Assembly (NCBI GenBank): GCA_965240365.1
Contig: OZ251218.1
Span: 2,648,922 to 2,712,921, forward strand
Direction of reading: 5' to 3'
DNA from: Gammaproteobacteria bacterium
GTDB taxonomy: Bacteria; Pseudomonadota; Gammaproteobacteria; Eutrophobiales; Eutrophobiaceae
Length of the DNA: 64,000 nt
This document shows, piece by piece, positions 30,975 to 48,200 of the stretch. The notes beneath the pieces were generated by a model that saw only the letters and a list, made by a program, of their open reading frames with translations, was not told the origin of the DNA and searched no databases. Every line of letters begins with the position of its first letter. Positions within the stretch are counted from its first letter, which is position 1. Made by a program: the position numbers and the translations under genes.

Positions 30975-31108
30975 GGGCTTATCCTTTGTATGTTTCGGCT
31001 TGTTCCTCCTCTTTCGCTTTTAAGAACAAAGAAAGAACGTATGACTCGTTTTTTCAATCTTGGCAAGATATAAAATCCTGTTTGCTGACAAAAATTATGC
31101 GGTTTTTA

Positions 31109-31534
31109 TCAACCTGCCGGTTCCAGGCCGGTTGCACACACACCATGGCATGCCTCGCGCTGGCGCTGCTGTTGCGCTTTGTCGATAGCGTCAAAGGCGT
31201 CTGCGGCGCGGGCTGGTGTTTGAGCGTTCTGAAGGCCACGCCGCGCCCGCTGTATCTCCTGCTCCCAACGCCGGTTAAAGTGTTCTCGGATCACAGCATG
31301 CGCTTTTTGCGGCTTTAGCCGCGGGAAAGGCTTGTCCGTTTTCACCATCAGCGCGCCTTGCCCTTGCTCACCCTGGCGCTCTGCTTCCGTCTGGCGCGTC
31401 GCTTCACGTTCGATACGCCCAAACGGGCCGGACGCCTCGGTAAATTCCCCTTGCGGGCTTTCCCGCTTGCCCAGCGAATCCGGCAGGCCGTCACGCCCCT
31501 GTGACGACACACCGCCATAGCGTGGCCGCTTCAC
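31109..31534 (-). CDS. Hypothetical protein
   Basis: GTG start overlapping the coupling-protein stop (GTGA); charged, helical. Confidence 0.45.
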   Translation of the reverse strand: MKRPRYGGVSSQGRDGLPDSLGKRESPQGEFTEASGPFGRIEREATRQTEAERQGEQGQGALMVKTDKPFPRLKPQKAHAVIREHFNRRWEQEIQRARRGLQNAQTPARAADAFDAIDKAQQQRQREACHGVCATGLEPAG

Positions 31535-33144
31535 CACGTCCTGTACCCCTGCACATAGGCGACCTGGCCATTGGCGTGATTGGGCCAATGCGCCAGATGC
31601 CTGGGCACGTCCTCGCGGATAAAGCGCCGCGTCCGCTGGAAGAAACGGCCCTGAACGCCGAGGCGATCCAAAGGTGGAAACAGCGGGTCTGGCCCGTAGC
31701 GGCCCGCCATGGCCGGATTAGTCCAGTAGGCTGGCAGCTTGTTGGCCAGCACCGGCGGCAGGCCCGAACCCGGCGATATCACCAGCACTTCATCCTTGAG
31801 TCCCAGAATTTCAGCCGGATCAAGCGCATAGCGCCCGCTCCTGCGCCGCTGCCCGCTTTGAGCGCCTTCGTGCCCGGCGATATGAGCGGCTTTCAGCGGG
31901 TCGGCACCCTCCAGCAGGGCGGCGAGCCGGGCCTGCTCCGAGCGCAGGCGGTGATTGCCCTGCGCCATCGGATCATCAAGCTGAATAGTGACCTTGCCGA
32001 CGGTATCGGCCAGCCTTCTGGCCGAAGAGATTTCCCGGATACCGCCTCCCATATACAGTTGCATGCCGCAACTATCAATAATCTCCTCCGCTCCGGCTTT
32101 GCCCATCAGATGCACAAGCTGCCCGTGACTCTGATAAACCAGCAGCGTGCGAAAGAACTTCCGAAACTCCGATACGGCGGATTTAATAAAATCCGCACCG
32201 CCGCAGCTAACCGCTTCCTCGATAAAGAAGAGCGGCCTTGCGCCCCGCCCCGCGCGAACGCAGTGAAGCTGGGCGATACCCACCACCATCCGCGTCAGGC
32301 TTTCATTGAACGTCCCGCTGCCGCTGGGCTGGGCATAATACACACCGATCTTTTTGCCGGGATCGGCAAGCTCAGGCAGATAATCCGCATCGCCGCTCAC
32401 CGCCGCGGCGGCCTTGGGCGAAGACAGCCAGTCAAAACTGTCTTTCAGACAGCCGATGATCGCGCCCCATTCCTTCTCGGAATTATGTTTTTTGGCGTAC
32501 ATCTCCACCAAGGTCGAGTAGATATTGTAAGGCATGCCCTCAGAACTGCGGCCTATGGCTTTCAAGAACGCATCGTCAGTGTCAATGCGGTTGAGCGTTT
32601 CCCAAAAGCCCCGCGGTGTAACCCGACCTTCCAGCAGAACCTTTTGCATGGCGATACGGCTCCCCCAGCGTTTGGCCGACTGGCCCACCCAGGCGTTCTC
32701 GCCCTTGCTGTCCTGATTCACAACACCCATTGCGATGATGCGTTTGGCGTTATCGAACAGATCATCATCGGCTTGCAGAATACTCCACAGATCAACCGGA
32801 TGATTGATGTCCGGGTAGGCGCTCACGCCAAACGGATTGACGGCGTAGGCGTCGCGTCCCGCGGCGAGATTCCAGTGCCAGCTTGTGCTCATATACTGCC
32901 CGCCGACATCCAGCATGAAAAAACTGCCCGTCGAAGGGTGAACCAACTGATAGGCGCCCAGACATGAAAACTTGGCGCTGCCCGCGCCGCCGATGATGAT
33001 GCCGGGTTCCTGATCTGGCAGCCGCAGACAAGTATTGCCGATCACGGCCACGGGGCCGTTGGGATTACCCAGCCGCCGCGCGTCATCCTGCGTTCCCAGC
33101 CGGGCAGACCCGTAAGGATTCTCGCGGTAGAACCGTCCGTCCAT
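31531..33144 (-). CDS. Type IV coupling protein (VirD4/TraG-like)
   Basis: IIIGGAGSAKFS Walker A-like, FMLDVGGQ, PLFFIEEA Walker B-like, LVYQSHGQL; start MDGRFY at 33144. Confidence 0.8.
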   Translation of the reverse strand: MDGRFYRENPYGSARLGTQDDARRLGNPNGPVAVIGNTCLRLPDQEPGIIIGGAGSAKFSCLGAYQLVHPSTGSFFMLDVGGQYMSTSWHWNLAAGRDAYAVNPFGVSAYPDINHPVDLWSILQADDDLFDNAKRIIAMGVVNQDSKGENAWVGQSAKRWGSRIAMQKVLLEGRVTPRGFWETLNRIDTDDAFLKAIGRSSEGMPYNIYSTLVEMYAKKHNSEKEWGAIIGCLKDSFDWLSSPKAAAAVSGDADYLPELADPGKKIGVYYAQPSGSGTFNESLTRMVVGIAQLHCVRAGRGARPLFFIEEAVSCGGADFIKSAVSEFRKFFRTLLVYQSHGQLVHLMGKAGAEEIIDSCGMQLYMGGGIREISSARRLADTVGKVTIQLDDPMAQGNHRLRSEQARLAALLEGADPLKAAHIAGHEGAQSGQRRRSGRYALDPAEILGLKDEVLVISPGSGLPPVLANKLPAYWTNPAMAGRYGPDPLFPPLDRLGVQGRFFQRTRRFIREDVPRHLAHWPNHANGQVAYVQGYRTW

Positions 33145-33146
33145 GT

Positions 33147-33437
33147 TCAAAACAGACCCCGGCGCGAACCGCCCCGTATAAACCCCTGAACAAACAGTTG
33201 CAACAGCACCGACACACCAAAAAAACAGGCCAGCACCACGATGCCCACAAACGCCCAGCTTCCCCAAACCGCCAGTTCGCGGCCGAACTCAGCGGCCAGA
33301 TAATGAAACATCTCTACCCGCACCGTTCTGGCGATGACCGGCGCCAGGAAGAATGCGCCCAGCGCCGCCAGCGCATGACTGAAACGCGCGATATTCTTGA
33401 CGAGGCTGGATGCGGGAGCCGGATTGAAATCTCTCAT
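33147..33437 (-). CDS. Small membrane protein (2-3 TM)
   Basis: 96 aa, hydrophobic; start overlaps the upstream stop (ATGA) and the gene abuts the T4CP start. Confidence 0.65.
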   Translation of the reverse strand: MRDFNPAPASSLVKNIARFSHALAALGAFFLAPVIARTVRVEMFHYLAAEFGRELAVWGSWAFVGIVVLACFFGVSVLLQLFVQGFIRGGSRRGLF

Positions 33438-34768
33438 GGCGATTCCCCCCGCGCCGTCTGTATCGGTGCGGCGCGCACGATGGCCGCCACATCCACCAAA
33501 ATCGTCCCGCCGTGGTCACGCCTGCTGTCAGCCTGGCGCAGCAGCGCTTTGACCGCGGGCTTGTTGGGAGCGCCGGTTTCCGCCGCCAGATGAAACGGCG
33601 CGGAATAAGTGCGATGATTGGCCGTAATGCGAAGCTCACCGGCCACGCCGCCGGGCATGCGGCCACTGTAAAAATTAATCACCACAACCACCGCGCTTAA
33701 ATCCAGCGGCCCGAAAAAAGAGATAGTTTCATAGCCGTTGAGCGTTTGCGGCGACCGGCGGAAATCCTTCCAGTAGCGCCCGTCGGCGGATTTAGTATTG
33801 CCGAAATACAGCGCCTCGCCCCCCGGACGCGGGGCCGCGTGCAGGTCGATATCGCAATGCTCGCACAGCCATGAAATGCCAATCTCCAGATTGTCCGCCC
33901 GGCGGATATCCCGTTCGGCCAGCGGGCGGCGGCTTAGGCGGCGCTCAAAGATCGATGGCGCCGCGGACGGCGGCGTGAGTTGCACCATCTCCACCTTGGC
34001 CGTGTCGCCGTGCGTTGCAAAGCCGTGTGCATTGCCCGCCGCGCCGTTCCTGATCCGCGCAAGAATACTGGTGGCGTCGCTGCCATACGACACCATCTCA
34101 CCGCTCAGCGCCTCAACGTAAAGCGTCCAGAAACGCCGCGTGTAATAGCGCAGGCGATCCTGCTGAAAGGGATCATGATGGATAATGTGAACGCGCGCAC
34201 CGTCGAGCAGCTTCGGGTTGTCCGCCGCGCCGTAGGGCGTTTGCCCGCGCGAGGCGCTTAAATGCCCGTCGGCCGGGAACGCCCCGTCCTTCATGGAAAA
34301 GGCCGGTTCCTGCGGATCATCGTAGCGCGCCGAACCGAAGACCAGCACATCCAGACCATCGCCGGACCTGAAGTGCTCACCGGCAAAGCGGAGCAGTTGC
34401 GGCAACTTCACCGCGCCCCGAACAGACGGATGCCCCGGCGTGCCGACAGCCTGCGCATTGGCCTTAAATTGCAGCAACGCGCCCACGGTCTGCCGATTCA
34501 GCGCCATGCGGGCCTTGGGATGGCGGTATTTGAGATCACTCGGCACGGTGAAGACGCCGAGCGTTTGCAGCGCGTAGCCGTCAATGAACACGGCGGTGTC
34601 ACCGGCTTCAAGGTTGGCGGCCAGATTCAGGGCGGTTCTGATTTGTGTGGCCAGAACCTCCGGCGTTTCATAGGGCGAAAAGGCAATCACCCGTTCCCTT
34701 GCCGCCGCCGGGTGAGCGGCGGCCAGCAGAGAGAAGATCAAGACCATTACAGATATTAGCGTTTTCAT
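33434..34768 (-). CDS. Secreted protein with C-terminal YfaP/DUF2135-like domain
   Basis: Signal peptide (...AHPAAA); C-terminal LEIGISW..CDIDLHA.P..GEALYFGN...YETI...VINFYSG. Confidence 0.65.
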   Translation of the reverse strand: MKTLISVMVLIFSLLAAAHPAAARERVIAFSPYETPEVLATQIRTALNLAANLEAGDTAVFIDGYALQTLGVFTVPSDLKYRHPKARMALNRQTVGALLQFKANAQAVGTPGHPSVRGAVKLPQLLRFAGEHFRSGDGLDVLVFGSARYDDPQEPAFSMKDGAFPADGHLSASRGQTPYGAADNPKLLDGARVHIIHHDPFQQDRLRYYTRRFWTLYVEALSGEMVSYGSDATSILARIRNGAAGNAHGFATHGDTAKVEMVQLTPPSAAPSIFERRLSRRPLAERDIRRADNLEIGISWLCEHCDIDLHAAPRPGGEALYFGNTKSADGRYWKDFRRSPQTLNGYETISFFGPLDLSAVVVVINFYSGRMPGGVAGELRITANHRTYSAPFHLAAETGAPNKPAVKALLRQADSRRDHGGTILVDVAAIVRAAPIQTARGESP

Positions 34769-34810
34769 AGCGTTACCTCGCTTATGGTTTATCGGATTAA
34801 ATACATGCGC

Positions 34811-35740
34811 CTACATATAGCGGCGCAGCGCTGCCAGCCGGATGCAGCGCTTGTTGATATAAAGATCACGTTGTGCTTCCAGTCTGGCGACCTTGCCCCG
34901 GCAGATGCCATAGGCGTCGCTGAGTTCTTTCACCAAACCCCGCTGCGCCTTGACAGTCCTTGTCAGCGCGATGTATTGCGGGTTATCATCAAGCATGTCC
35001 GGCTGATATCGACGATAGATACCGGAAGCCGCGATCCACAACGAGCTTCCCGTCAGAAGCTCCACCAGTAACTGCGTCAACACCAGCGAAGAACCCCCAT
35101 GCGAACCCGACAGCAGAACGTCGAATTCGATCTGGACTGCAACCCCAGGATAAGCCTGTGCGAACAGATAAGCCCACACGCCCAGCGCGCCGCCATTTAT
35201 CAAAAAGACACTCAACTCATAGCGCCTGCGGCTGCTATTGGTTGGTAAATAATCCGAGGCAAACTTTAAGGCGAGCGACCCAAGCGGCAAGAGCATCGCC
35301 AGACCCCACGCCAAAAAGGGAGATTCAATAAAAATCGGAGAAAACGAAGTGCGCATCGCAAAATTCAGATTTAATGCGCCCATGCCCACGGCGGCGATAC
35401 CGCCAAAAATGGCCACCCAAAACTGCCAGAAATCATAATGCTTCCACCGTTCCGGCTCCGCGTCTTCTGACGTTTCAGGTTTTCTGGAAGGAACAAGCTG
35501 ATCCGTGTTGCGCAGGCGCTTTTCCAGCTTGCTCAAATCATCGTTACCCGACGTGAACCTTGCCTCCGTGTGCGCAAAGGCTTGCTTTGCGGCAATGAGA
35601 TCGGCGCCGAATTCAACATCGCATTCGCGTGCAGCATGCGCTTTCATCAAAGCCATTGCCTGTTTTTCGTTTGGCAATAAAGCCAGTTCGTGCAAGATGT
35701 AATCGTTCGGCTTTCTGCCGTCTTTGGAATTTGCGCTCAT
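34811..35740 (-). CDS. Four-TM membrane protein flanked by coiled coils
   Basis: Four hydrophobic spans around aa 105-240; charged helical termini. Confidence 0.65.
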   Translation of the reverse strand: MSANSKDGRKPNDYILHELALLPNEKQAMALMKAHAARECDVEFGADLIAAKQAFAHTEARFTSGNDDLSKLEKRLRNTDQLVPSRKPETSEDAEPERWKHYDFWQFWVAIFGGIAAVGMGALNLNFAMRTSFSPIFIESPFLAWGLAMLLPLGSLALKFASDYLPTNSSRRRYELSVFLINGGALGVWAYLFAQAYPGVAVQIEFDVLLSGSHGGSSLVLTQLLVELLTGSSLWIAASGIYRRYQPDMLDDNPQYIALTRTVKAQRGLVKELSDAYGICRGKVARLEAQRDLYINKRCIRLAALRRYM

Positions 35741-35743
35741 GGT

Positions 35744-36124
35744 TCAGTCCTCTCCGGCGTAACCGTGCATCGGCTTGTGAGATGCCGTGATGTCTTCAGC
35801 GTAAGCGAGCAGCGTTTCTTCCCAATCCCCGGTTCGATGAGTGTCAACTATGAAGTCGCCAGGAGCTTCTTCTAAAACCAAAAACTGAATATCATCATCA
35901 GAATCAACTTCGATAGTCGTATCCCCAAAGTTCCCGTAGACTCTCAAGGTGGTATGCGCGTCGAGAATCACGATTTGGGAAGATAGGAGGCCTGACTCGG
36001 CTTCACCGTCCGTTTCAATAATGGCAACAGCGGCTTTGATTAAGGCGTTTACCGCTCCACGAGAAGCGGAACTGGATTGGCGTGTATGAGGGTGCAGCAT
36101 TGTTCTTTCCTCTATGTTGGACAA
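35744..36124 (-). CDS. Hypothetical protein, first gene of the T4CP operon
   Basis: 126-aa acidic ORF 3 nt upstream of the next gene. Confidence 0.55.
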   Translation of the reverse strand: MSNIEERTMLHPHTRQSSSASRGAVNALIKAAVAIIETDGEAESGLLSSQIVILDAHTTLRVYGNFGDTTIEVDSDDDIQFLVLEEAPGDFIVDTHRTGDWEETLLAYAEDITASHKPMHGYAGED

Positions 36125-36353
36125 TGCTGTCTTATTATCGCCATCGAAAATCAGATAGAAACAGGAAAAAATCTGATTGAAGTAGAAAAAAATCTTATTT
36201 CATCAGAATCTATCCGATTCATGAAAAAAGACAGCGTTTGCCAGCCCCGGTCAGGCGGCGATGACTGCGCGATCAATCATGCGGCAATAATTTTATATTG
36301 ACATAAGGAATATTGATATGATATTTATATTCCCAAAAGTTATATGAGGAACA

Positions 36354-36698
36354 ATGTCCCTATCAGAAGTAGACTTGGAATACGACACCGGCACCCACCC
36401 GCCAGACGTGCCGGCAAAATGGCTGACAGCGGTAGCCAACCGCACATTCTTTCTTTGCTACGACCTTGCACGCACCAAGTACGATGATGAATACGGTGAA
36501 TACGGTGCCTTTGAAAAGCTCCCGCCCGAGCAGCAAGGCGCTCTATGCGCTAAAGCGATGGATGAATTAGTGCGTGAAGGCTATACTGCGGTCTATAGCA
36601 AGGAAATCCTTGATGGAACTATTAAGATGCAACTACGTTACGATGCATGCGACAAATTGCGGCACTTCTGGTCCTATGATGGGCCTGAGCAGCGTTGA
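36354..36698 (+). CDS. Hypothetical protein
   Basis: 114-aa ORF with GAGGA RBS, divergent from the T4CP operon. Confidence 0.55.
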   Translation: MSLSEVDLEYDTGTHPPDVPAKWLTAVANRTFFLCYDLARTKYDDEYGEYGAFEKLPPEQQGALCAKAMDELVREGYTAVYSKEILDGTIKMQLRYDACDKLRHFWSYDGPEQR

Positions 36699-36768
36699 CG
36701 CCTCTTTGATCTTGCAATCCGTTCAGTAACCAACTGATTCCCGTTTCTTTAAATAAGCCGCCGCCCGC

Positions 36769-39700
36769 GTGAAATTGAATCTGGCAGTTTCTGAAAAATT
36801 TATCGGCTATTACGAAAAAGTAATAGTTGCGGCATCTTCTGATGGGAGGGATGACGCAGAACTCAAATTCTCCCGATTTAAACCGGGTAAGACAGGGCGG
36901 AAAGCATTTGGAGATTGCTGGGTTGCATTTTTTTTGTGTGATTTTTTGCGTGACAAGAAAGATCAGGCAAATGGCGCTGATGAGATTAAGAAGATCAAAG
37001 CGGTTGTAGAAGACGATGGCTTGTACAAATGGGAACAGCTTAAAGCATATATTACCTCGAATTTACACGGGTTCACTACAAAAAAAGCGGACTGTATTTT
37101 TGTTAGGCTGTCCGCGACACTGGCGCAAGACCCAGACGAGACTTTCCTTGAATTTCTGAAATTCTGCAAAGGAAAACCGCTGGCCTGCTTTTACGAATTG
37201 CCAGAATCAGCAGAAAAATTGGCGCATAGGGCGGGCGAGTCGTTAACTATGCAAGAAATATCTCTGCATAAAAACCTGCAAAAGAAAGCAATAGAAACCT
37301 TAAACCAACTTATTTCCAATCTTGATAACCACATAAAATCAAAGTCAAACGAGAATAAAAAAGAAGCGTCAGCAACTCAGGCCGCTTCACCTCGGCAATC
37401 TGATCGCCTGTTGCGCTTAATCACAAAAGATAAAATCTGGCATGAAGACCACGAATCATTATCTCTCAGCCCCTACAATCATCATGGCAAGCTGCATGGC
37501 CGGGACAATGAAATTGGAGCGCTGAATGCCTTTCTTGGCGACCCTTCGCCGTTTGAGTTTCTCTTTATCATTGGCCCGTCCGGCGCTGGCAAGACACGGC
37601 TCGTTACCGAGTGGTTTCGAAAACATGCCACGATTGATAACTGGCAAGCCGGGTTTGTAGAAGATGACAGCCTGTCAGAGTCCTGGCGCGCATGGAACGC
37701 CGAGCCTGTTCAGGTCGATACGCTTATCATTGTTGATTACATCTATCGCTTCCGTGATGTGATAACGCATATTGTCAACAAAGGCAATCATCATGCGCAG
37801 GCGCATGCGACAACAGACCGGCCCTTGAGCGAACCGTCGCCGTCCACGGACGCGCCGATTGTTCCAAAGCTCAGGTTGATTGTTCTGGATCATGTGTTTC
37901 CCGACAAGGCGACATTCGATGATCTGGACGCTCACAAAATTGAAGCGATGGGCGAAACACAAGCCAATGTGGTCAACAATCTGAGCGCCATGCAAAAGAA
38001 ATATCCCCCGATGGTGCTTCAACAATCAAAGAAGATGCTTAAGGCCATTATCGCGGAATCCTACGGCAACCTCGATGATGAAGACAGCGTTGAATGGGCG
38101 TATCAAACGCTACAGCGCATTGATGGCGAGGTAGAAGCGAGCGTTGATACAGACCATGCGGATACCCCTGCCAAAGACAGCCCTGAAGCCACCATCCGCT
38201 ATGCCAGTCAGCCATTGTTCGCAAAACTCATCGGCGAGGCGCTCAAAAAACACCCGCCGGGAGAGTCGATTAAGAACGAAAAGCTTGCACCGTGGAGTCG
38301 CCGCGACTTGGTTGCCAGGTATTTTTTTAACAATAGAAACCGGCTGCCGTGGTACTTTGACGATAAGTACGGCCAATGGATTGGCGCGGCCATTGCCGCC
38401 GCTACGGTGATTCAGGGCTTGCGGTTTGATGATCTATTCCAGTGTCTCAATGACATTGGCGTGAAGCTGGAGAGAAAAGACAGAGATCACCTGAAATCAA
38501 CCTGCAACAATATCGTTTCGTCAAGAGACTCAGAGGAGTTGAAAAGATACGAACCTGACATACTGGGCGAGAACTTTGTTTTTACATTTCTTGATAACTT
38601 TCGGTATTTTGCCCCTTGTGAAAACAGCGAGCCAAAAAATGATGTCCGTAAGTTTTTTTTCAGGCTTTTACTTTTCACCGATGTGAACCAGAAACCATTT
38701 CCGACCCCGAATGAACGTTTCATTGAATTTATCAAGCGCGCTATGCGCAACCTCCTGCTGGATGATCAAAGCGTCCATAGTGTAGGTGATGGATGGAAAG
38801 CACTGGCGGGGCTTTTGCAACCCGGTCAATATAAATCTGAAGATATGTACTTTTCGTCCATACTGGCCAGCGTTAATACGATTTCCGATATTGGAAACAG
38901 CAGCGCTCATGGGAGTAGAGCATTACAGGCTTTATTCGGGGAAAATCTGGGAATTGAGCAGGCATCCTACCTCGCTAACACCTTTGATAAATCAAGTCGA
39001 GATAAGAATCATGCAAGAAAATTAGATTCTGTATGGGGCTTATGTTTGTCCGCATTAACGCGGTATGTCGATTGGCTTTTAGAGAATGGAAACCTGTCGA
39101 AGGAAATTGAAGAGATATTCGAAAATAGCGCTGAAGTTTATGAACAAACCGCAAAGTTTGGTGGAAAGCGGATTTTTATACCATGTTTATACGATGCGAG
39201 GAACGTCCTGAAGTGGTTGATTGAAAACTATCGAGAAATCGACATCAATTACCAAAGTGACAAGAAATGGTCACCTTTGCATTGTGCTTGTTTCTCTGGC
39301 AGTACAAAGGTGGCGCTATGGCTGGTTGATAAAGACGCCAATCTTGAAGCGCAGACCAAGGAGGATAAGTGGACGGCATTGATGTTTGCCTGCCGTTCCG
39401 GATCGGAAAAGGTGGCACTACGGCTGGTTGCCAAAGACGCCAATCTTGAGGCGCAGAACAAGGATAAGTGGACGGCATTGATGGTCGCTTGTAGGGAAGG
39501 CTTGGAAAAGGTGGCGCTACGGCTGGTTGCTAAAAACGCCAATCTTGAAGCGCAGACCAAGGAGGATAAGTGGACGGCATTGATGTTCGCTTGTGAGAGC
39601 GGCTTGGAAAAGGTAGCGCTAGGGCTGGTTGCCAAAGACACCAATCTTGAGGCGCAGACCAAGGATAAGTGGACGGCATTGATGGTCGCTTGTAGGGAAG

Positions 39701-40677
39701 GCTTGGAACAGGTGGCGCTACGGCTGGTTGCTAAAAACGCCAATCTTGAAGCGCAGACCAAGGAGGATAAGTGGACGGCATTGATGGTTGCCTGCCGTTA
39801 CGGCTTGGAAAAGGTGGCGCTGCGGCTGGTTGCCAAAGACGCCAATCTTGAGGCGCAGGAGAGGGAAAAGTGGACGGCATTGATGTTTGCATGCCGTTAC
39901 GGCTTGGAAAAGGTGGCGCTACGGCTGGTTGCCAAAGACGCTAATCTTGAGGCGCAGGACAAGGATAAGTGGACGGCATTGATGTTCGCCTGTCGTTATG
40001 GCTTGGAAAAGGTAGCGCTAGGGCTGGTTGCCAAAGACGCTAATCTTGAGGCGCAGGACAAGGATAAGTGGACGGCATTGATGTTCGCTTGTGGGAATGG
40101 CTTGGAAAAGGTGGCGCTAGGGCTGGTTGCCAAAGACGCCAATCTTGGGGCGCAGGACAAGGATAAGTGGACGGCATTGATGTTCGCTTGTGAGAGCGGC
40201 TTGGAAAAGGTAGCGCTAGGGCTGGTTGCCAAAGACGCCAATCTTGAGGCGCAGGACAAGGATAAGTGGACGGCATTGATGTTCGCTTGTGAGAGCGGCT
40301 TGGAAAAGGTAGCGCTAGGGCTGGTTGCCAAAGACGCCAATCTTGAGGCGCAGAACAAGGATAAGGAGACGGCATTGATGTTTGCTTGTGAGAGCGGCTT
40401 GGAAAAGGTGGCGCTAGAGCTGATTGCCAAAGACGCCAATCTCGAAGCCGTTGACCCGGAGGGAAGGACAGCGCTCATGTGGGCTGCTCTCCGCTGTTCC
40501 AGCCGCGTCGTGGGCGCGTTGCTAGATAAGCAGGTAAGCACTGACGGGATATGGCAAGGCAGAAAATTCCGCGCTACCGCGCTTGGTCTGGCAAGAGTAC
40601 GCGGAGACAAAGAAATTATTCGATTGCTTGAAAAGAAAGGCGCACTCGAAATCCCGCCTTACACGCCACCCGCATAA
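36769..40677 (+). CDS. NLR-like protein: unknown N-terminal domain, STAND-like NTPase, ~14 ankyrin repeats
   Basis: LHGRDNEI...IIGPSGAGKTRL, TLIIVDY; repeats KWTALMxACxxGLEKVALxLVAKDANLEAQ. Confidence 0.85.
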   Translation: MKLNLAVSEKFIGYYEKVIVAASSDGRDDAELKFSRFKPGKTGRKAFGDCWVAFFLCDFLRDKKDQANGADEIKKIKAVVEDDGLYKWEQLKAYITSNLHGFTTKKADCIFVRLSATLAQDPDETFLEFLKFCKGKPLACFYELPESAEKLAHRAGESLTMQEISLHKNLQKKAIETLNQLISNLDNHIKSKSNENKKEASATQAASPRQSDRLLRLITKDKIWHEDHESLSLSPYNHHGKLHGRDNEIGALNAFLGDPSPFEFLFIIGPSGAGKTRLVTEWFRKHATIDNWQAGFVEDDSLSESWRAWNAEPVQVDTLIIVDYIYRFRDVITHIVNKGNHHAQAHATTDRPLSEPSPSTDAPIVPKLRLIVLDHVFPDKATFDDLDAHKIEAMGETQANVVNNLSAMQKKYPPMVLQQSKKMLKAIIAESYGNLDDEDSVEWAYQTLQRIDGEVEASVDTDHADTPAKDSPEATIRYASQPLFAKLIGEALKKHPPGESIKNEKLAPWSRRDLVARYFFNNRNRLPWYFDDKYGQWIGAAIAAATVIQGLRFDDLFQCLNDIGVKLERKDRDHLKSTCNNIVSSRDSEELKRYEPDILGENFVFTFLDNFRYFAPCENSEPKNDVRKFFFRLLLFTDVNQKPFPTPNERFIEFIKRAMRNLLLDDQSVHSVGDGWKALAGLLQPGQYKSEDMYFSSILASVNTISDIGNSSAHGSRALQALFGENLGIEQASYLANTFDKSSRDKNHARKLDSVWGLCLSALTRYVDWLLENGNLSKEIEEIFENSAEVYEQTAKFGGKRIFIPCLYDARNVLKWLIENYREIDINYQSDKKWSPLHCACFSGSTKVALWLVDKDANLEAQTKEDKWTALMFACRSGSEKVALRLVAKDANLEAQNKDKWTALMVACREGLEKVALRLVAKNANLEAQTKEDKWTALMFACESGLEKVALGLVAKDTNLEAQTKDKWTALMVACREGLEQVALRLVAKNANLEAQTKEDKWTALMVACRYGLEKVALRLVAKDANLEAQEREKWTALMFACRYGLEKVALRLVAKDANLEAQDKDKWTALMFACRYGLEKVALGLVAKDANLEAQDKDKWTALMFACGNGLEKVALGLVAKDANLGAQDKDKWTALMFACESGLEKVALGLVAKDANLEAQDKDKWTALMFACESGLEKVALGLVAKDANLEAQNKDKETALMFACESGLEKVALELIAKDANLEAVDPEGRTALMWAALRCSSRVVGALLDKQVSTDGIWQGRKFRATALGLARVRGDKEIIRLLEKKGALEIPPYTPPA

Positions 40678-41373
40678 ACCTCTCTGGAACGTTAACCCCT
40701 TACCGGAACCGGCAGGGTTTGTTTCCGTCCTACAGGCTTCGCCTGTTTTCCGCAAGCTGTCCTTGTATTACCACCTGCGGCGGCACTCCAAAGGGCTTGG
40801 CAAGGAAAACCCCTTCGGTTTTCCGTTGCATCCTATCCCGCTTTGGCGCGGCGCAGGCATTGAGCCTGTGCCGCGCCAGCGAACCGTATCGCCGGTTCAT
40901 CACTCGCAGGGGCCTGGAGATATGCCTCTCCACCCTGCACCCGCACCATGCATGAGCAAGCGCCTGCTCAACCAGCGCCAACCCTTATGCCGGGTTCGAT
41001 ACGGCGTAAACCGAATCCGCGGTTTAATCGCGGGTACTGCAAGGCAAAGTGACACGCCTGAGGTTCGCAGTCGTGATTCGTTCCATCCCGTTACGGCGCG
41101 TCCGGCGCGGGCGCGGCGCTATGCCGCTCAGCGGGCGGCGTAAGCGGCACGCGCTCAGGCTGGGCTATTTCGTGCCCAGCCTGTATTAAGACCTTTTTAA
41201 CCTCTTTTGCGTAGTATTGTAAGCACTATGAAAACGAGACAATACAGGGCTGGCGGGACACAGGGGCGCGGTGCGTGCAAACAGAATATGACGATGGCCG
41301 GGTTTAACTTTGTTAAACCCGGCCGCCGGTTATCGTTAGATAACCGGGGCGCCGCCATGAAAGGCGGCGCGTA

Positions 41374-42129
41374 ATGGGCTTTCCACCGCTATATCATCAC
41401 TTTGTCGCCGCCGTTTACGGCAAAGAGCAGGACGCGGTTTTTGACCAGCAGATGCAGGCCGCGTCGGCAGGCATGGGGACGCTGGATGAAAGCCAGTTAT
41501 CAGGGCTATTGGCGTTGACGCTGGCGCGGATTAAATCCCAAAATAAGGCAGAGACCAGGCACAAACAGTCCGTCCGTGAAATTCTGCACTACGTGTTGCT
41601 TGAATATATCGACAATCTCAATCGTGATATTTCAAAGCTGGAAGCCGGGTTTGAAGCGCAGTTCGGCGATGCCTGGCGCGAAGAAATCGCCCTGCGGGTG
41701 TTTGGCCCGGATGCGGTGCCCGCACAACGCCCCGGCGAGCGTATCAAAGACTACCGCACGCGCCTTGAACGCGCGCTAAGGGAAGAAATGCTGAATCCTG
41801 ACGGCAGCATCAAGGATCAGTACAAAGACGATCCCGAACTGGAAAAATACGCTGAATGGGCGCAGAAAATCTATAACCGGGAGGTTGCCAGAGCCATTGC
41901 CAATGATCTTAAGAACCCAGCCAGCACCCATGCGCAGACGCATCAGCTTTTGCAGGGGCTGGAAGAAGCGCAAAATGCTGAGCAAAACACCTATGCCGCT
42001 CGTGAGCTTCTAGGGAATGAAGAACATAGGAACGCAATTTTGACTATTGATGATAATGCCGATGATCGCGTAGGCTTGCAAAATCAATCAGACTTTACTC
42101 TCGATTTCTTGAAATTTCCCGGTCAGTAA
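41374..42129 (+). CDS. Hypothetical helical protein
   Basis: 251-aa ORF, no family recognised. Confidence 0.6.
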   Translation: MGFPPLYHHFVAAVYGKEQDAVFDQQMQAASAGMGTLDESQLSGLLALTLARIKSQNKAETRHKQSVREILHYVLLEYIDNLNRDISKLEAGFEAQFGDAWREEIALRVFGPDAVPAQRPGERIKDYRTRLERALREEMLNPDGSIKDQYKDDPELEKYAEWAQKIYNREVARAIANDLKNPASTHAQTHQLLQGLEEAQNAEQNTYAARELLGNEEHRNAILTIDDNADDRVGLQNQSDFTLDFLKFPGQ

Positions 42130-42744
42130 CAAGCGCTGGATTCCTGTTCTTTGCCCTTTCTGCGACACCTGAAATTTTCTCACGTACATTGCTAATGAGA
42201 AACGGGCCTTCCGTCCCGCCCCTAACATGCAGTGCTATTACAGAGGCAGGAACATCGTTTTTTTCATAGAAGAATCTGATTTGGTCAATACCATGACGCT
42301 TGAAATCGCGAGTCAACACCATCTTGATCTGATCGTCAGTAACGGCAGGTCGGGTACCCATACGCACGGATACCGCCACACCGAACGGGTTTTTCTCCGA
42401 CCATTCACTACCCAGAACCTTAACACAGGTTGCGTATTTGCAGTCCGTGATGTAATCGCCTGAGGCGTCAAAGCCGCCCGCGTCCTGTGACGTATCCGCC
42501 CGCGCCGCGCCGACAAAAGCACTTGCCGCCGCGCAGAGAATCAGACACAGATAAAACGTTCGTTTTTGCTAGTGTTCGAGATATGGGCCATGTGCAGGGC
42601 CAGAAAATTCGTAAGTGATTGAAATTTATAGGAATGGGAGTGCAGCTATGCGAAAAAAACCGAGTCCGGGAAAACGAACGTTTTTGTATATCATTAATAC
42701 ACTGAAATCATTGACTCTTTTAGCTATCTCAGGAGGATAAAAAC

Positions 42745-43212
42745 GTGCGCTACGGCTATGTCAGAACATCCAGAAACTGCCAGCACACCGACCGGCAGGT
42801 CAACGAACTGGCGCAACACTGCGATGTGGTGCGCATAGAAAACGGGGTCTCGGCCAGAAAGAAAGAGCGCCCGGTGTTTCGCCAGCTTCTGTCTGAGGTG
42901 GGCAAGGGCGATGTCTTGGTGGTCACGTCCTATGACCGGGCCTTTCGCAACGTGGTCGAGGGCTTAACGGCGCTCGATGCGCTGAGCGCGCGCCAGGTGC
43001 GGTTTGAATCCGTCTGGCAGAAATTCGACCCCACCACGCCCGACGGACGGCTGTTCTACACCATCACACTGGCCATGGCCGAATGGGAAGTCGGCAATCT
43101 GGCGCTGCGCACCATCGACGGCCTCAAAGCCGCCGTACAACGCGGGGCCACCCTCGGACGCCCCAAAAAAGGCCGGGCCGGACGCAGAGTGAACATGGCG
43201 CAATGCGCCTGA
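42745..43212 (+). CDS. Small serine recombinase (resolvase/invertase); C-terminal HTH apparently missing
   Basis: RYGYVRTS...RQ, RPVF, GDVLVVTSYDRAFR, GATLGRP; 155 aa. Confidence 0.85.
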   Translation: MRYGYVRTSRNCQHTDRQVNELAQHCDVVRIENGVSARKKERPVFRQLLSEVGKGDVLVVTSYDRAFRNVVEGLTALDALSARQVRFESVWQKFDPTTPDGRLFYTITLAMAEWEVGNLALRTIDGLKAAVQRGATLGRPKKGRAGRRVNMAQCA

Positions 43213-43400
43213 TATGGCTACCTGGGCACGCGCATTGAGGGTGAGGGGTTTTACCACTGAGAACGCGCCGTTTGGGAGCAGATTGAACGCGCGCCTGCCT
43301 AAATTCTAAATGTGCCGGGGTCGTTGTTGTGGTAGAGGTACATTATTCTCGACAAAACTGCTAATATTTGGTAGTTTAGGAATAGAGAGAGGATAAAATC

Positions 43401-43667
43401 ATGCCGACAACCAGTATCGACCTTGGCGAACACTTCACCGGCTTTGTCGCCGCCATGAAAGAAACGGGCCGCTACCGCAACGCCAGTGAAGTGGTTCGGG
43501 CGGGCCTGCGCCTGCTTCAGGAACAGGAAGCCGAATACCAGACCAAACTCGAAGCGCTGCGCCAGGCGCTGGAAGAGGGCGAGCAAAGCGGCGAGAGCGC
43601 CAAAACACATGCGCAGATCATCGCCGAGGCGAAAACGGAAATGAATGGCCGGATGAATGGCCAATAG
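43401..43667 (+). CDS. parD: ParD-family antitoxin
   Basis: TSIDLGEHF...GRYRNASEVVRAGLRLLQEQE...LRQALEEGEQSG. Confidence 0.9.
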   Translation: MPTTSIDLGEHFTGFVAAMKETGRYRNASEVVRAGLRLLQEQEAEYQTKLEALRQALEEGEQSGESAKTHAQIIAEAKTEMNGRMNGQ

Positions 43668-43950
43668 ATACGTCTATTCAAAACGGGCGGCGCGTGACCT
43701 CAAAAAAATCTATATCGACACCGCAAGGGAATGGGGTGTCGCACAAGCTGACAAATACGCCGCCGGACTTGAGAATGCGCTCACGTTGCTGGCTGAAAAC
43801 CCGAATTTGGGCCGCCGCTGCGATGAGATACGGGCCGGGTATCGGCGCTTTGAGCATGCGCGTCACATCATTTTTTACCGCGGACGCAAAGCCGATATTT
43901 TCATTGTTCGTATCTTGCATGACCGGATGGATAGTGAGCGGCATTTCTAA
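43657..43950 (+). CDS. parE: ParE-family toxin
   Basis: SKRAARDL..IY..T...WG..QAD.Y...NPNLGR...HIIFYR...IVRILHDRMD. Confidence 0.9.
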   Translation: MANRYVYSKRAARDLKKIYIDTAREWGVAQADKYAAGLENALTLLAENPNLGRRCDEIRAGYRRFEHARHIIFYRGRKADIFIVRILHDRMDSERHF

Positions 43951-44075
43951 GAAGACGGCAAAAGGCTTAAAAACAAGGCGGCAGGTCAGCGAGTGGCGGC
44001 AAGCGCCACCCGCACTGGTGGGAGACAGAGGTATCTGACTCCCGCTTTTTTGTCTATAAATCAATCTATCTGCTT

Positions 44076-45518
44076 TTATAGATTCATGCCGGGCGTATAG
44101 ATTCCTTGCTGCGCGGTCCGGTTATCATAGGTGTGTGCTATTTCAGGCGGCGATGGATTGTCAGCCATATATTTTGCCACTGCCTCCAAACCGCCCTGCG
44201 CTTTCAAATCCTCATACTGTCTCGCAAACAGCTTTGCGTTGGCCTTGACCTCGATGAGCGATTGCACTTCGAGCGGCATGTCATCGGTGAGGGTGTTCGG
44301 CAGTTTATTAAATACGGCGGTTAAATGCATGGACGGCTTATCATGGCCCGTTACCCAATCCCAGGTATCACCGAAGACGCTTTTTGCCGCCGCGCTCAAT
44401 GTGTGCATGGCGTCTTGCGAAACCTCGATTACGCCGCCTTTTATGGCTGCAAAATTGGCATAGACTTTTTCTGTGATATAGCCCGCGCCGACGCCTCCGC
44501 CTATAGCGCCCGCAACGCCGCCAACCACGCCGCCTATGGTCGTTCCCACGACAGGCACAACCGAGCCGATAGCCGCCCCGGTTGCGGCCCCGGCAACGGC
44601 GCCGCCTAAAGAACCCAGATTAGAGGCGGTTTCGATGGTGGCAGACCGGGCGGTTGCTTCCATATCATTATCAAGGAGATCAGGACTGGTTTCACCATAA
44701 GGCACAGCCGCTTCATAGGTAACTTCGGCGGCTTCGGCTTTTGAACCGCCGGCGGCCAGTGTAAACACGCCGGATAATGTGCCAAAGGCGACACCAGCCA
44801 CAAAACCGCCACTTTTGCCCAGATTACTGAATGTTTCCGCCAAACTCTGCAAGCGGCTATCTCTATTGGCTTCCAACATGGCCGCGCCGTTTTCATTCAA
44901 TAATGAATCCAGATTGTTTTTCTGGGCCGGATCGTGAAAAATTGCTTGCTGTTGCTCTAAAAGGCGCTGCCATTTTTCTGTCTCTGCATCTGTAAGAGGA
45001 CGATTTTCTGCCTTTGCAGTCCGCTCTATTGCCTGAATTTCTTCGTATAATTTGTGCGCCTTTTCACCCGCTATGGCCATGTCGTGCTGATCTACACGAA
45101 ACTCTGCGACATGGCCGTTTGGCAGGCGCACCTGTGTGTTGAGTGTGCGAAAATGTGTTTCCAGAGGTTCCGCGTAAAAGTCTTTAACTTTAACGATACC
45201 TAAAGTTTCTTTTAGCGCGGCAATTTCATCACGAATAATTTGAATTTGTTCAGGCGTTTCCACGAGTAAACGGCCACGCACCATATCAGAAATTCTTGTA
45301 TGGCTGCCACCATAATCGCCTGTGATTTTATCCTGAATGCGCTCTAAATCTTTCAGAGGCGCACTTTGAAATTCAATGCCGGTAAACTGTTCAGGATATT
45401 TATCTTGAAGATATTGGAGAAAGTTCTGACCAAACTCTGCAAAATCAGGCATCGCCTCGCCGGCCTGGTCATAAAGCTGCTTTAAATTCAGATCAGGATT
45501 TTGCAATCCTTCTTCCAT
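44076..45518 (-). CDS. RelA/SpoT-family alarmone synthetase domain (Apk/Tas1-like) fused to a glycine-zipper C-terminal region
   Basis: APLKDLERIQDKITGDYGG, SDMVRGRLLV, KDFYAEP..HFRTLNTQVRLPNGHVAEFRV, AHKLYEEI; later GSLGGAVAGAATGAAIGSVVPVVGTTIGGVVGG. Confidence 0.78.
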   Translation of the reverse strand: MEEGLQNPDLNLKQLYDQAGEAMPDFAEFGQNFLQYLQDKYPEQFTGIEFQSAPLKDLERIQDKITGDYGGSHTRISDMVRGRLLVETPEQIQIIRDEIAALKETLGIVKVKDFYAEPLETHFRTLNTQVRLPNGHVAEFRVDQHDMAIAGEKAHKLYEEIQAIERTAKAENRPLTDAETEKWQRLLEQQQAIFHDPAQKNNLDSLLNENGAAMLEANRDSRLQSLAETFSNLGKSGGFVAGVAFGTLSGVFTLAAGGSKAEAAEVTYEAAVPYGETSPDLLDNDMEATARSATIETASNLGSLGGAVAGAATGAAIGSVVPVVGTTIGGVVGGVAGAIGGGVGAGYITEKVYANFAAIKGGVIEVSQDAMHTLSAAAKSVFGDTWDWVTGHDKPSMHLTAVFNKLPNTLTDDMPLEVQSLIEVKANAKLFARQYEDLKAQGGLEAVAKYMADNPSPPEIAHTYDNRTAQQGIYTPGMNL

Positions 45519-45585
45519 TCCACACTCCCTGTTCTAAAACTGCCTGTCCTTTTGTTTGTTATGAAAGCAGCTTTATATGTTTTAT

Positions 45586-46416
45586 TCATTCAAGGCTTTT
45601 GCCAAGCATAGCTTCCGCTTTCTCGCGGAATTGTTCTTCCGTAATTTCCTCAACTTCCATGCTATAAACCAAACGACTCAGATATGTTGCATCCTGCACC
45701 AATTCGCCTTTTTCACGATTTGGCACTTCTGCTCCCTTTCTTAAGCCTTTGTCATTAAAAGCCACACGCACAGGCACGCTTTCACCTAATAAAAAATACT
45801 GATATTTCACCTTACCTTTTCCCATTGTTGGCTCGGCATGACTTCCACTGCCCCTAATTTTTGGCGCGTCATTAATTAAACTATATACATTTTCTGTAGT
45901 GATGCGCAAAGCGGCGCATAGTTTTCCTATGGATGTATGATAACGCTTTCCTAAACGCTCGGCTTTTTCCGGATTTTTTTGTGTTAAATCCGCCACGCGC
46001 TCAGGGTGTAAATTGTCCATATTATCCGCGAGCTTCACCAGCATTGCGCCCCGGTTTCCGCTGGAAATAACATCATCAATAACCTGCGCATAACTGCGCC
46101 GGTCATTTTCCGGTTTCGTTACAATGCTTACAATGGCAATACACGCTGCGGAGTAGTCTTTCTGGCTCAGGTATTTTTCATCAATGCCACAATCTTCTAT
46201 CGTGTCGTGAAGCATAGCGGCCATAACCACATCATCACTGGCTTGCGGGTCCAGTGTTTTTACATTGCGCGCGACTCTGATAGGATGGGCAACATAGGAT
46301 TTGCCATTATGATCGGTCTGGCCAGCATGCAATTCGCGGATTAAACCCAGCGTATATTCAATGCCCGGATGCATTGCCTTGTTAAACCCTGTATTTGATG
46401 TGATTGATTTCATCAT
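45586..46416 (-). CDS. HD-domain small alarmone hydrolase (Mesh1/Aph1-like) with an extra ~75-aa C-terminal domain
   Basis: LHAGQTDHNGKSYVAHPIRVA, AAMLHDTIED, VKLADNMDN. Confidence 0.85.
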   Translation of the reverse strand: MMKSITSNTGFNKAMHPGIEYTLGLIRELHAGQTDHNGKSYVAHPIRVARNVKTLDPQASDDVVMAAMLHDTIEDCGIDEKYLSQKDYSAACIAIVSIVTKPENDRRSYAQVIDDVISSGNRGAMLVKLADNMDNLHPERVADLTQKNPEKAERLGKRYHTSIGKLCAALRITTENVYSLINDAPKIRGSGSHAEPTMGKGKVKYQYFLLGESVPVRVAFNDKGLRKGAEVPNREKGELVQDATYLSRLVYSMEVEEITEEQFREKAEAMLGKSLE

Positions 46417-46671
46417 ACTTTTCTACTTTAAATAATATAAAAATTTTAGACAATTATGATTAAAAAAACGTGAATGATTGCGCCTTATCCGTGCAATTTT
46501 CAACGATTTCAATATATTAAGGCTTAAAAAATGACTTTGGCAGCCGCTGTCGATGGCATTCAATGATGTAAAGCCGGGTGATTTTAACGAGATTAGCCGG
46601 ATTCTGATGATTTCCTGAGCATTCTGGGATTATACACCAGCTTGCCAGACAGAGGCCACTTCTGCAATTTG

Positions 46672-47961: not shown

Positions 47962-48200
47962 GTATCGCCACCGCATCTTAGCCCCAAAGCGACAAACAGG
48001 GCTTCGCGCATGGCCAGCACCGCCGCGCAGGCTTCTTCAAGCTGCCGTTCCACATGCTCGCCGGTTTCCAGCGTCCCGCAGTGGGCCGCTTTCGCAAGCT
48101 GGTTAAGGTTATTGGGAATGCGCGACTGGCCCAGCCCGGCAAGCAGCGCGGCCACCTTAGCGCTCGCGCCCCCGGCCGCATGGCCCCCCGCCCGGGCTTC
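47958..48200 (-). pseudogene. MobC relaxosome accessory protein, C-terminal fragment
   Basis: LGQSRIPNNLNQLAKAAHCG; stop overlaps the relaxase ATG; N-terminal RHH part not found. Confidence 0.7.

Follow-up and report, generated by a model that had tools for sequence, protein, structure and literature searches.

What is a bacterial mobile element doing with a gene that fuses a nucleoside triphosphatase (NTPase) to a run of almost interchangeable ankyrin repeats? The question is raised by a 64,000-nucleotide stretch of a Gammaproteobacteria bacterium (assembly GCA_965240365.1, contig OZ251218.1, positions 2,648,922 to 2,712,921; hereafter the window), in which an integrative mobilisable element (IME) carries an open reading frame (ORF) for a protein of 1302 amino acids (aa). 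The protein begins with an unrecognised helical part, continues with a P-loop NTPase and a further helical region, and ends in 11 ankyrin units with caps. The answer we favour, with a confidence only slightly better than even, is that it acts as a conflict sensor resembling the NOD-like receptors (NLRs), one that travels with the IME and owes its diversity to repeat shuffling. The parts of the gene, in window positions, are as follows.

36769..40677, plus strand: entire NTPase-ankyrin ORF, GTG start, 1302 aa
36769..37368, plus strand: N-terminal domain, aa 1-200, a predicted all-helical bundle of unrecognised family
37489..38148, plus strand: P-loop NTPase core, aa 241-460, with motifs taken from alignments and strand order from AlphaFold2 (AF2)
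38206..39198, plus strand: helical, winged-helix-like region, aa 480-810, with a predicted local distance difference test score (pLDDT) of mostly 85-97
39199..39369, plus strand: linker and N-terminal capping ankyrin repeat, aa 811-867, ...WSPLHCACFSGSTKVALWLVDKDANLEAQTKEDK
39370..40464, plus strand: eleven high-identity ankyrin units, aa 868-1232, 33 or 34 aa apiece
40465..40677, plus strand: C-terminal capping repeat, tail, and stop codon, aa 1233-1302, conserved among alleles

How uniform is the array? The units were delimited by cutting the protein at xT[APV]LM, which splits it into an N-terminal cap beginning SPLHCAC, 11 internal units, and a C-terminal cap at the other end. At the nucleotide level, Tandem Repeats Finder detects a 99-bp period in 11.4 copies with 89% matches at 39306-40442, and Pfam assigns Ank families to the protein. 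DNA identity among the units ranges from 72 to 99%. Units 2 and 4 are 99% identical, with one base differing in 99, and unit 3 shares 97-98% of its bases with units 9 and 10, so the reuse of blocks across non-adjacent repeats is real. A preliminary description of the locus had already pointed to this reuse and had counted 11 nearly identical repeats of 33/34 aa plus caps; both points stand. The residue pairs following ALMxAC read RS, RE, ES, RE, RY, RY, RY, GN, ES, ES, and ES, identical to the list given there, and the hairpins QTKED, QNKD, QERE, and QDKD are all found in the array.

Where does the variation fall? Residues were placed in the canonical ankyrin numbering, in which the residue preceding TALM is position 5, and it is this numbering that assigns variable positions to the concave face. 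As a reference we used the designed ankyrin repeat proteins (DARPins) of Binz and colleagues from 2003, which were reportedly randomised at positions 2, 3, 5, 13, 14, and 33. These six positions were chosen before the data were inspected, and the test is exact over all 6-of-33 subsets; entropy and diversity were computed from 41 units pooled from four alleles. Mean entropy is 1.59 bits at the DARPin positions compared to 0.49 bits elsewhere (exact P = 0.0018), and nonsynonymous diversity (pN) is 0.34 compared to 0.09 (enrichment, exact P = 0.0013). Single positions reach 2.56 bits (position 13), 2.43 bits (14), 2.13 bits (1), 2.09 bits (10), 1.54 bits (5), 1.52 bits (22), and 1.48 bits (3). 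The proposal that variation gathers at binding positions therefore holds in that the enrichment exceeds chance, and fails in detail: DARPin position 33 is nearly invariant as Q, and positions 1, 10, 16, and 22, outside the reference set, are variable too. In the window array, the hypervariable positions are 5, 10, 13, 14, and 1-3. Judged by residue numbering, amino-acid change appears to be focused on the β-hairpin and inner-helix positions of the ankyrin ligand surface.

The ratio of nonsynonymous to synonymous rates (dN/dS, omega; Nei-Gojobori) follows the same division. Omega is 0.90 at the DARPin positions and 0.32 at all others. For the empirical hypervariable set (1, 3, 5, 10, 13, and 14) it is 1.11, compared to 0.26 for the rest, and the latter falls to 0.13 when the moderately variable positions 2, 16, 18, 22, and 27 are removed as well. 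Purifying selection acts on the array framework. The ligand-side positions change as fast as expected of neutral sites or slightly faster, which is compatible with diversifying selection and no proof of it. Computing dN/dS by repeat position, a check named in advance, hence separates the ligand side from the framework (0.13-0.32) and stops short of values clearly above 1. Ratios of about 1 at the variable positions are also expected under relaxed constraint, and they bring in a different explanation: the protein might serve a housekeeping or regulatory role in the IME, as a scaffold, chaperone, or partition-like switch. The array would then vary through easy recombination between 99-bp repeats, since tandem arrays of such identity are intrinsically unstable, and the variable positions would be the least constrained surface residues. 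The strong conservation of the framework, exposed outer-helix residues included (omega 0.13), speaks against such a neutral origin, and further evidence on it comes from the alleles and from the wider family.

Do close relatives carry the same array? A word-indexed search with aa 1-790 retrieved four proteins that are 89-95% identical over this range, encoded on contigs with 3-5x coverage from ERZ25067570 and ERZ25067561, two long-read metagenome assemblies in the ENA. These contigs, referred to as L002, L003, L004, and L021, hold the same IME in the same gene order as the window, with a backbone that is 97-99% identical. Every array is different: the internal units number 11 in the window, 9 in L002, 10 in L003, 11 in L004, and 12 in L021, and their orders differ. 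The array is not invariant among relatives, the outcome that a comparison of repeat number and order had been meant to reveal. In L003 the annotated start lies too late, and the true ORF starts at the same GTG. L004 (contig coverage 3x) has one extra G in a GGG run within the array, at about 8640, and L021 (likewise 3x) has TAA at 8353-8355, codon 785, compared to GAA in all other alleles; the TAA divides the gene into a 784-aa NTPase ORF and a 462-aa ankyrin ORF. Both changes may be read errors at 3x coverage or real decay, and they were read through solely for comparing repeat units.

The comparison of the window with L004 resolves the changes unit by unit. The 5' parts of the two genes are 98-99% identical. 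Window unit 1 corresponds to L004 unit 4, unit 2 to unit 3, unit 4 to unit 5 (100%), unit 5 to unit 6, unit 6 to unit 7, unit 7 to unit 8 (100%), and unit 8 to unit 9 (100%), while units 9 and 10 are both similar to L004 unit 10. Furthermore, the window array has an additional ES unit between RE and REQ and is without the first two L004 units, AN and AK. This unit-for-unit map therefore reflects duplication, deletion, and reordering of units. Each residue pair at positions 13-14 is written with essentially one codon pair (ES as GAGAGC in 6/6 cases over three alleles, EN as GAGAAC in 6/6, RE as AGGGAA in 4/4), which indicates the spread of existing cassettes rather than recurrent mutation. A permutation of site incompatibilities, similar to the pairwise homoplasy index (PHI), gives p = 0.03 for the 11 units of the window and p = 0.0005 for the 41 units. 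With the unit map and the codon pairs, this bears out the earlier suggestion of an array diversified by recombination.

The array is not the sole part of the gene that diverges. Along the IME, the identity profile holds at 97-99% in the backbone and drops in three troughs, the third of which falls at a neighbouring gene described below. The first, at 36.0-37.5 kb (82-88% compared to L002 and L003), covers the N-terminal domain together with a 114-aa gene upstream, and the second, at 39.0-40.5 kb (82-87%), covers the array. Between alleles, the N-terminal 230 aa show dN of at most 0.13, omega of 0.4-0.55, and very uneven dS (0.014-0.25), which points to mosaicism. The NTPase core (aa 231-470) stays at 98% identity, with dS of 0.04-0.10 and omega of about 0.2, the latter indicating that the gene is functional; for the C-terminal helical part omega is about 0.3. 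Both ends of the protein are thus divergence hotspots flanking a conserved switch. An unconstrained array leaves the N-terminal hotspot beside the 98%-identical core unexplained, and it sits poorly with residue pairs that persist as discrete cassettes common to alleles. The stop codon or frameshift in two of the five alleles counts, conversely, in favour of the neutral explanation.

Is the behaviour of the array peculiar to this lineage? An exhaustive phmmer search with aa 1-810 returned 498 representatives at E <= 1e-3, each standing for one cluster at 50% identity, and 76 of them reach E <= 1e-30. The matches are confined to aa 220-800, except for a close allele and two partial cases, and ankyrin repeats occur in 39 of 40 sampled members. 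The family inhabits free-living marine and soil Proteobacteria. It is rare, being absent from the 125 other genomes of the host's family and present in 3 of 400 genomes sampled from the phylum; a JGI metagenome scan gave no close relatives. Across 99 members, the mean identity between units has a median of 0.36 and exceeds 0.6 in 13, among them P0093 (0.88) and P0063 (0.74). High-identity arrays from members that are less than 50% identical as proteins vary at common positions, namely 5, 10, 13, 14, and 1-4. The combination of a homogenised array and a variable face thus recurs within the family. Neither the shared variable positions of independent arrays nor the recurrence of homogenisation is explained by relaxed constraint, and we regard a neutral or merely structural repeat protein as improbable.

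What kind of switch does the array sit on? Membership of the signal transduction ATPases with numerous domains (STAND) was judged in the sense of Leipe et al. 2004. The Walker A motif GPSGAGKT (aa 269-276, nt 37573-37596) conforms to GxxxxGK[ST], and its residues S271, G272, G274, K275, and T276 are invariant in alignments of 78 and 133 sequences. Ahead of the P-loop, KLHGRDNEIGALNAF conforms to the motif hhGR[ED]xE; in the form LHGRDNExxxL, R245 never varies, and E248 and L252 hardly do. Positions 2-49 of the Pfam AAA_16 profile align to aa 242-287, just below threshold (31.7 bits compared to a cut-off of 32.6), and STAND-type Pfam matches among 40 relatives comprise AAA_16 in 14, NPHP3_N in 3, nSTAND5 in 3, and nSTAND3 in 2. 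The Walker B motif, TLIIVDY at aa 318-324 (TLIIVDYIY), is of the hhhhDY type with D323-Y324 invariant in the family; the second acidic residue (D or E) of STAND proteins is absent after D323. On the next strand, R369...D374-H375 are invariant or nearly so across the family, and D374-H375 might replace the missing acidic residue. The NACHT Walker B signature, D[GAS]hDE (10.1101/2022.07.19.500537), is not found, the corresponding residues being VDYIYRF, and there is no Pfam NACHT match. Likewise, NB-ARC has no Pfam match in the query or the 40 relatives, and its Walker B is hhhhDD rather than DY.

Two AF2 models, both spanning aa 1-810, place these motifs in a fold. The first, built from 11 sequences, was poor (pLDDT 64), with EfAvs5 and a wheat NLR as top matches. 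The second, built from 78 family sequences, reached a pLDDT of 78.5 and a predicted TM-score (pTM) of 0.70, and its strands and helical domains are arranged as in an AAA+/STAND module. Its best whole-model Foldseek matches in the PDB are SAMD9, the wheat CC-NLR resistosome, Cdc6, EfAvs5, NRC4, Apaf-1, and RPP1, with moderate E-values of 2e-4 to 4e-2 (SAMD9 1.7e-4, wheat CC-NLR 3.3e-4) and probabilities of 0.97-1.0. In the models, a nucleotide-binding domain is followed by helical and winged-helix domains, a predicted fold nearest to NLR, Apaf-1, and Cdc6. The helical region contains the family-invariant motifs HPLFAxLxG, RRDL, RLPW, EPDILGE, and RNLxNDDQ. A further STAND feature, the fusion of a repeat superstructure with a variable N-terminal module, is present as well, with Ank in 39/40 members. 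A sequence search of the PDB returned P-loop noise only. In the preliminary description the NTPase had been called STAND-like, with which fold and pre-P-loop GR motif agree, and the protein NLR-like. The latter term stands for the STAND-type fold and GR motif and needs qualifying for the rest, because the Walker B motif is non-canonical and the NACHT and NB-ARC signatures are absent. We conclude that the protein contains a STAND-like switch of an unnamed, non-canonical clade that is neither NACHT, NB-ARC, nor a PADLOC family.

The N-terminal domain was described beforehand as some 200 residues of unrecognised type, and so it has proved. Pfam contains no family for aa 1-240, PADLOC none for the domain, and no recognisable catalytic family is present. 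Among 1.84 billion representatives, no relatives of the domain were found, barring a close allele and two partial matches, and conservation across the NTPase-ankyrin family does not extend to the N-terminal 125-300 aa. The structure prediction proposed for aa 1-230, run here as part of aa 1-810, gives an all-helical bundle of about eight short helices and a long helix at aa 161-198, after which a linker predicted to be disordered extends to about aa 240; pLDDT is 65-85 over aa 50-190 in the second model, and the bundle has no low-complexity sequence. The domain thus appears new in the sense of unrecognised, as far as sequence families go. For completeness, several database candidates were rejected. 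Outside the repeats, the sole PADLOC match to aa 1-810 is PDC-M01A (E = 0.0066), with no stretch passing. The PADLOC models PDC-M72A (2.6e-94) and 'Ankyrin' cover the repeats alone (aa 936-1255) and were rejected as evidence of membership, and the Pfam matches DDE_1, EAD7, PocR, and TPR_TTI1_N are spurious, being sub-threshold with no passing stretch.

What does the genomic setting add? The IME surrounding the gene was delimited by colinear homology, and its recombinase, coupling-protein, resolvase, toxin/HD, and relaxase genes were identified with Pfam.

28990..48160, no strand: the IME, from colinear homology with L002, L003, and L004
28982-30622, minus strand: large serine recombinase
31109-36124, minus strand: coupling-protein operon, a VirD4/TraG-type gene first, then unknown genes
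36298..36325, plus strand: promoter-like site TTGACA-16-GATATT (10/12, a consensus match alone) before the 114-aa gene
36354..36698, plus strand: 114-aa gene of unrecognised function, ending 70 nt before the NTPase gene; also called in each of the four related contigs
41374..42129, plus strand: 251-aa gene of unrecognised function, downstream, conserved among the close alleles and shared with the Burkholderiales locus L005
42745-43212, plus strand: resolvase
44076-46416, minus strand: alarmone-type toxin/HD protein pair
46672-47976, minus strand: relaxase

The IME additionally bears ParDE-like and HigBA pairs, and there are no mating-pore genes among its genes. Homology with the differently integrated L003 starts at 28990, exactly where a tRNA-Ser(GCT) gene (28991-29082) starts; the serine recombinase ORF, on the opposite strand, runs into this tRNA gene with its 3' end. 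L002 shares the csrA-side chromosomal flank with the window (99%) and therefore occupies the same insertion site, while L003 lies elsewhere.

The association of gene and element extends far beyond these contigs. Distant family members, 26-33% identical, come from a Burkholderiales metagenome-assembled genome, Rhodobacteraceae, Roseobacter, Tropicibacter, Bosea, Kordiimonas, Pseudoalteromonas, and G519. Of the distant loci, 10 have flanks that can be assessed, and in 8 of them homologues of the serine recombinase, coupling protein, and/or relaxase lie nearby; the other two are on contigs no longer than 10 kb. Wherever both coupling-protein and relaxase genes occur on a stretch, the family member sits between them. 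Related serine-recombinase IMEs with the family are found in Alpha-, Beta-, and Gammaproteobacteria. Their core genes are 24-49% identical to those of the window, a divergence similar to that of the NTPase-ankyrin gene, which accordingly looks as old in the element as the core genes. The family is a long-term resident of one serine-recombinase IME family.

Linkage of this depth raises a second explanation, in which the ligand of the array is a protein from a conjugative element in the same cell, either a helper to hijack or a rival to exclude. The NTPase switch would couple recognition to excision, to transfer via the coupling-protein operon, or to exclusion, and shuffling would follow helper diversity or helper escape. 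An IME without mating-pore genes must use a helper conjugative element, and the linkage of the family to transfer genes, its core-like divergence, and its absence from 72,556 plasmids and 50,697 phage genomes are all in keeping with this, as is the lack of any killing-type effector domain among 40 sampled members. In addition, the NTPase-ankyrin gene and the coupling-protein operon are transcribed in opposite directions away from a 230-bp region in which 21-bp direct repeats occur. The tight, ancient linkage and the missing killing-type domain keep this explanation open. Against it, no DNA-binding or recombinase-interacting output domain is recognised in the protein, hypervariable surfaces typify antagonistic recognition (though helper escape is antagonistic too), and linkage to the element could merely reflect the long co-residence of a defence gene. 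We know of no precedent for protein-level helper sensing by an IME, and SGI1-type cases rely on helper transcription factors. We consider sensing of a helper or competitor unlikely, though still worth serious weight. A fuller version, somewhat less probable again in our view, pictures the NTPase-ankyrin protein as the 'eye' of this mobilisable-element family: it would sense co-resident conjugative elements and switch on the coupling-protein/relaxase machinery or exclusion, with repeat shuffling setting and resetting the helper range. If so, it would be the first NLR-type receptor by which one mobile element senses another, and the conjugation analogue of satellite-helper recognition in phage satellites.

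The adjacent VirD4/TraG-type coupling-protein gene also invites the thought that the protein is itself a type IV substrate. Transferred or secreted, it would take effect either inside a recipient bacterium, whose defences it might neutralise, or inside a eukaryote, be it a grazer or a host, in the manner of the Legionella and Coxiella ankyrin effectors; a hypervariable surface would suit variable recipient defences. NCBIfam models of Dot/Icm ankyrin effectors (AnkG, AnkY, AnkI), and MzaA, do match the protein, but in the repeats only and at best with 125 bits compared to a cut-off of 500, and were rejected as assignments. Moreover, a 1302-aa NTPase switch is unlike known translocated ankyrin effectors, the IME is without its own secretion channel, and the family belongs to free-living marine and soil Proteobacteria. 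Within the 3.66-Mb genome, the gene is the sole one with ankyrin repeats, and tblastn found no paralogue of its N-terminal domain, NTPase, or array in a search for an effector-associated-domain partner. We judge a translocated effector highly improbable. The host-interacting role that had been raised at the outset as an alternative is unlikely as well, because the genome has no other ankyrin gene and the protein carries an NTPase but no secretion signal.

How, then, would an NLR-like conflict sensor work here? The steps beyond ligand binding are drawn by analogy with Avs, bNACHT, and plant and fungal NLRs. We postulate that the concave ankyrin face would bind a foreign protein directly, the invader being a phage or another conjugative element. 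Binding would free the NTPase from an ADP-locked state and permit oligomerisation, and the clustered N-terminal helical domains would give the output. The presumably co-transcribed 114-aa protein, which co-diverges with the N-terminal domains, may join in this output. Most probably, the invaded cell would stop growing or die, or the invader would be blocked. New specificities would arise by in-frame recombination of 99-bp units, faster than by point mutation.

A conflict role fits an element that also carries ParDE, HigBA, and an alarmone-toxin/HD pair. A number of observations count against such a conflict sensor. At the variable sites dN/dS is about 1 and not clearly above 1. Two of five alleles carry a frameshift or nonsense codon, the alleles coming from long-read metagenome contigs of 3-5x coverage. 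The 40 sampled members contain no recognised effector domain, which is unusual compared to Avs and bNACHT, and PADLOC-DB v2 has no match for the NTPase or N-terminal parts. Because the DY-type Walker B is without a second acidic residue, nucleotide hydrolysis may be slow or absent. Finally, the fixed position in the IME and the core-like divergence look more like a core accessory function than swappable defence cargo.

The genes on either side were considered for a part in the system. The 114-aa gene has no Pfam or PADLOC match at the protein level, and its divergence tracks that of the N-terminal domain. It likely forms an operon with the NTPase gene, since the two are co-oriented and the 70-nt gap contains no terminator-like site. 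Across distant loci, co-variation of upstream ORF and N-terminal domain was uninformative, as it mirrors overall relatedness. A small co-oriented ORF comes before the NTPase-ankyrin gene every time, in nine distant loci too, yet its family changes from lineage to lineage and in those nine is unrelated to the 114-aa protein. Among these, the alphaproteobacterial ORFs (L007-L014) are 138-222 aa long, lie about 100-600 nt before the NTPase-ankyrin gene, and show a repeated motif HRxxGPAxxxxxxxxGxxxxExW. The upstream small ORFs comprise two homologous groups, L008/L010/L012 and L007/L009/L013/L014, with no Pfam match. In the divergent intergenic region between the coupling-protein and NTPase operons, imperfect 21-bp direct repeats occur in 2.5 copies at 36147-36199 (AAAATCTGATTGAAGCAGAAA), and an AT-rich palindrome, GGAATAT...ATATTCC at 36298-36340, coincides in part with the promoter-like -10 ahead of the 114-aa gene. 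The repeats and the palindrome could both be operator sites.

Downstream, the third trough of the identity profile lies at 42.0-42.5 kb (71-75% compared to L002, L003, and L004, with flanks at 97-99%) and covers the C-terminal tail of the 251-aa gene together with a small antisense ORF. This ORF (42095-42379, minus strand) has a conserved N-terminal half and a divergent C-terminal half, and the L005 homologue noted with this interval (42000-42500) is 62% identical. When the 114-aa and 251-aa proteins were compared with the distant loci by phmmer, the L005 homologue of the 251-aa gene was the single match; it is not independent evidence of linkage, because L005 belongs to the same element lineage. 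Elsewhere in the window, outside the IME, a second NTPase-repeat gene (15135-17717, minus strand) encodes 860 aa with a P-loop region that is faintly IetA-like; its TPR region, at the C-terminus, is hit by the PADLOC 'TPR' model (5e-11). The interval 54000-64000 combines a GC content of 0.66-0.74 and a strong AT skew with ORFs of 2250 aa and more than 1592 aa (the latter running off the window end), which probably encode a giant repetitive surface protein. In the genome as a whole, no match to the ammonia monooxygenase family PF02461 turned up, though none turned up in the control genomes either.

What would a diversified conflict sensor on an IME mean? New in this locus are an unnamed STAND-like clade, an ankyrin sensor, allele-level shuffling of units in bacteria, and linkage to one IME family; we found no paper that ties ankyrin NTPases to mobilisable elements. 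If our favoured reading is true, the gene would be a bacterial counterpart of the fungal shuffling-repeat NLRs caught mid-process, with near-identical elements of one environment carrying receptors that differ almost only in unit number, unit order, and ligand-facing residues. Prokaryotic STAND immunity would gain an ankyrin sensor class and a non-canonical NTPase clade of about 500 clusters at 50% identity, for which neither Pfam nor PADLOC has a model. Diversification would proceed by in-frame recombination of 99-bp cassettes and not by diversity-generating retroelements or gene turnover. Because the gene family is so strictly tied to a single family of IMEs, the question arises whether such elements keep NLR-type receptors for their own conflicts with phages or conjugative elements. 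The natural arrays, furthermore, are ready-made DARPin-like libraries with matched frameworks.

To which known systems does the protein come closest? By predicted structure, the best whole-model match is SAMD9 (E 1.7e-4, probability 1.0, about 640 aligned columns). In contrast to the window protein, SAMD9 and SAMD9L have no ankyrin sensor and carry other effector modules, identity is 8-9%, and TM-scores are low, so that the similarity suggested by the models lies at the level of the fold class of NTPase and helical domains. DARPins share with the array a near-identical framework and diversity at few positions, the natural variation peaking at 13, 14, 5, and 3. They differ from it in that the natural array also varies at 1, 10, 16, and 22, keeps position 33 nearly fixed as Q, and is fused to an NTPase.

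Avs and bNACHT proteins likewise combine sensor, STAND switch, and N-terminal module in a single chain and reside on mobile DNA (10.1101/2022.07.19.500537), and EfAvs5 is among the best PDB matches of the predicted models. The window protein differs in having no PADLOC match outside the repeats and no nuclease, TIR, SIR2, or protease effector. In a 2026 survey of STAND proteins, sensors are mostly TPR-like, with WD40 and FGE also represented and ankyrin unmentioned (10.64898/2026.01.04.697583); homogenised, shuffling arrays such as that of the window are unreported for Avs and bNACHT sensors. Internally conserved TPR and WD repeats have been noted in actinobacterial and cyanobacterial NB-ARC and NACHT proteins (10.1101/2020.01.06.895854). 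These NLR-like proteins resemble ours in high internal repeat identity and in the rapid diversification proposed for them in the same work, whereas the window protein has ankyrin repeats, an unnamed NTPase clade, Proteobacterial hosts, IME linkage, and allele-to-allele gain, loss, and reordering of units.

Fungal NLRs, finally, contain internally conserved ANK, TPR, and WD repeats with polymorphic repeat number and variable concave-face positions (PMC4986451), as exemplified by the Podospora PNP_UDP/NACHT/ANK protein Pa_3_8560 and the het-e/het-d nwd family (PMC4986451, PMC12222747). Compared to these, the window protein is bacterial, lies on an IME, has an NTPase that is neither NACHT nor NB-ARC and an unrecognised N-terminus, and its array lacks a meiotic or repeat-induced point mutation (RIP) context, with dN/dS of about 1 that is not demonstrably above 1. 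Common to both are the layout of N-terminal domain, NTPase, and repeats, ankyrin units that are about 85-99% identical, allelic variation in repeat number, reshuffling of units, and hypervariable inner-helix and β-hairpin sites. The hallmarks by which shuffling-repeat NLRs are recognised (PMC4986451) are present here in the identity of the units, in the 9-12 units over five alleles, and, by canonical numbering, in the enrichment of variation at binding positions. As a whole, the fungal shuffling-repeat NLRs represent the closest known behaviour.

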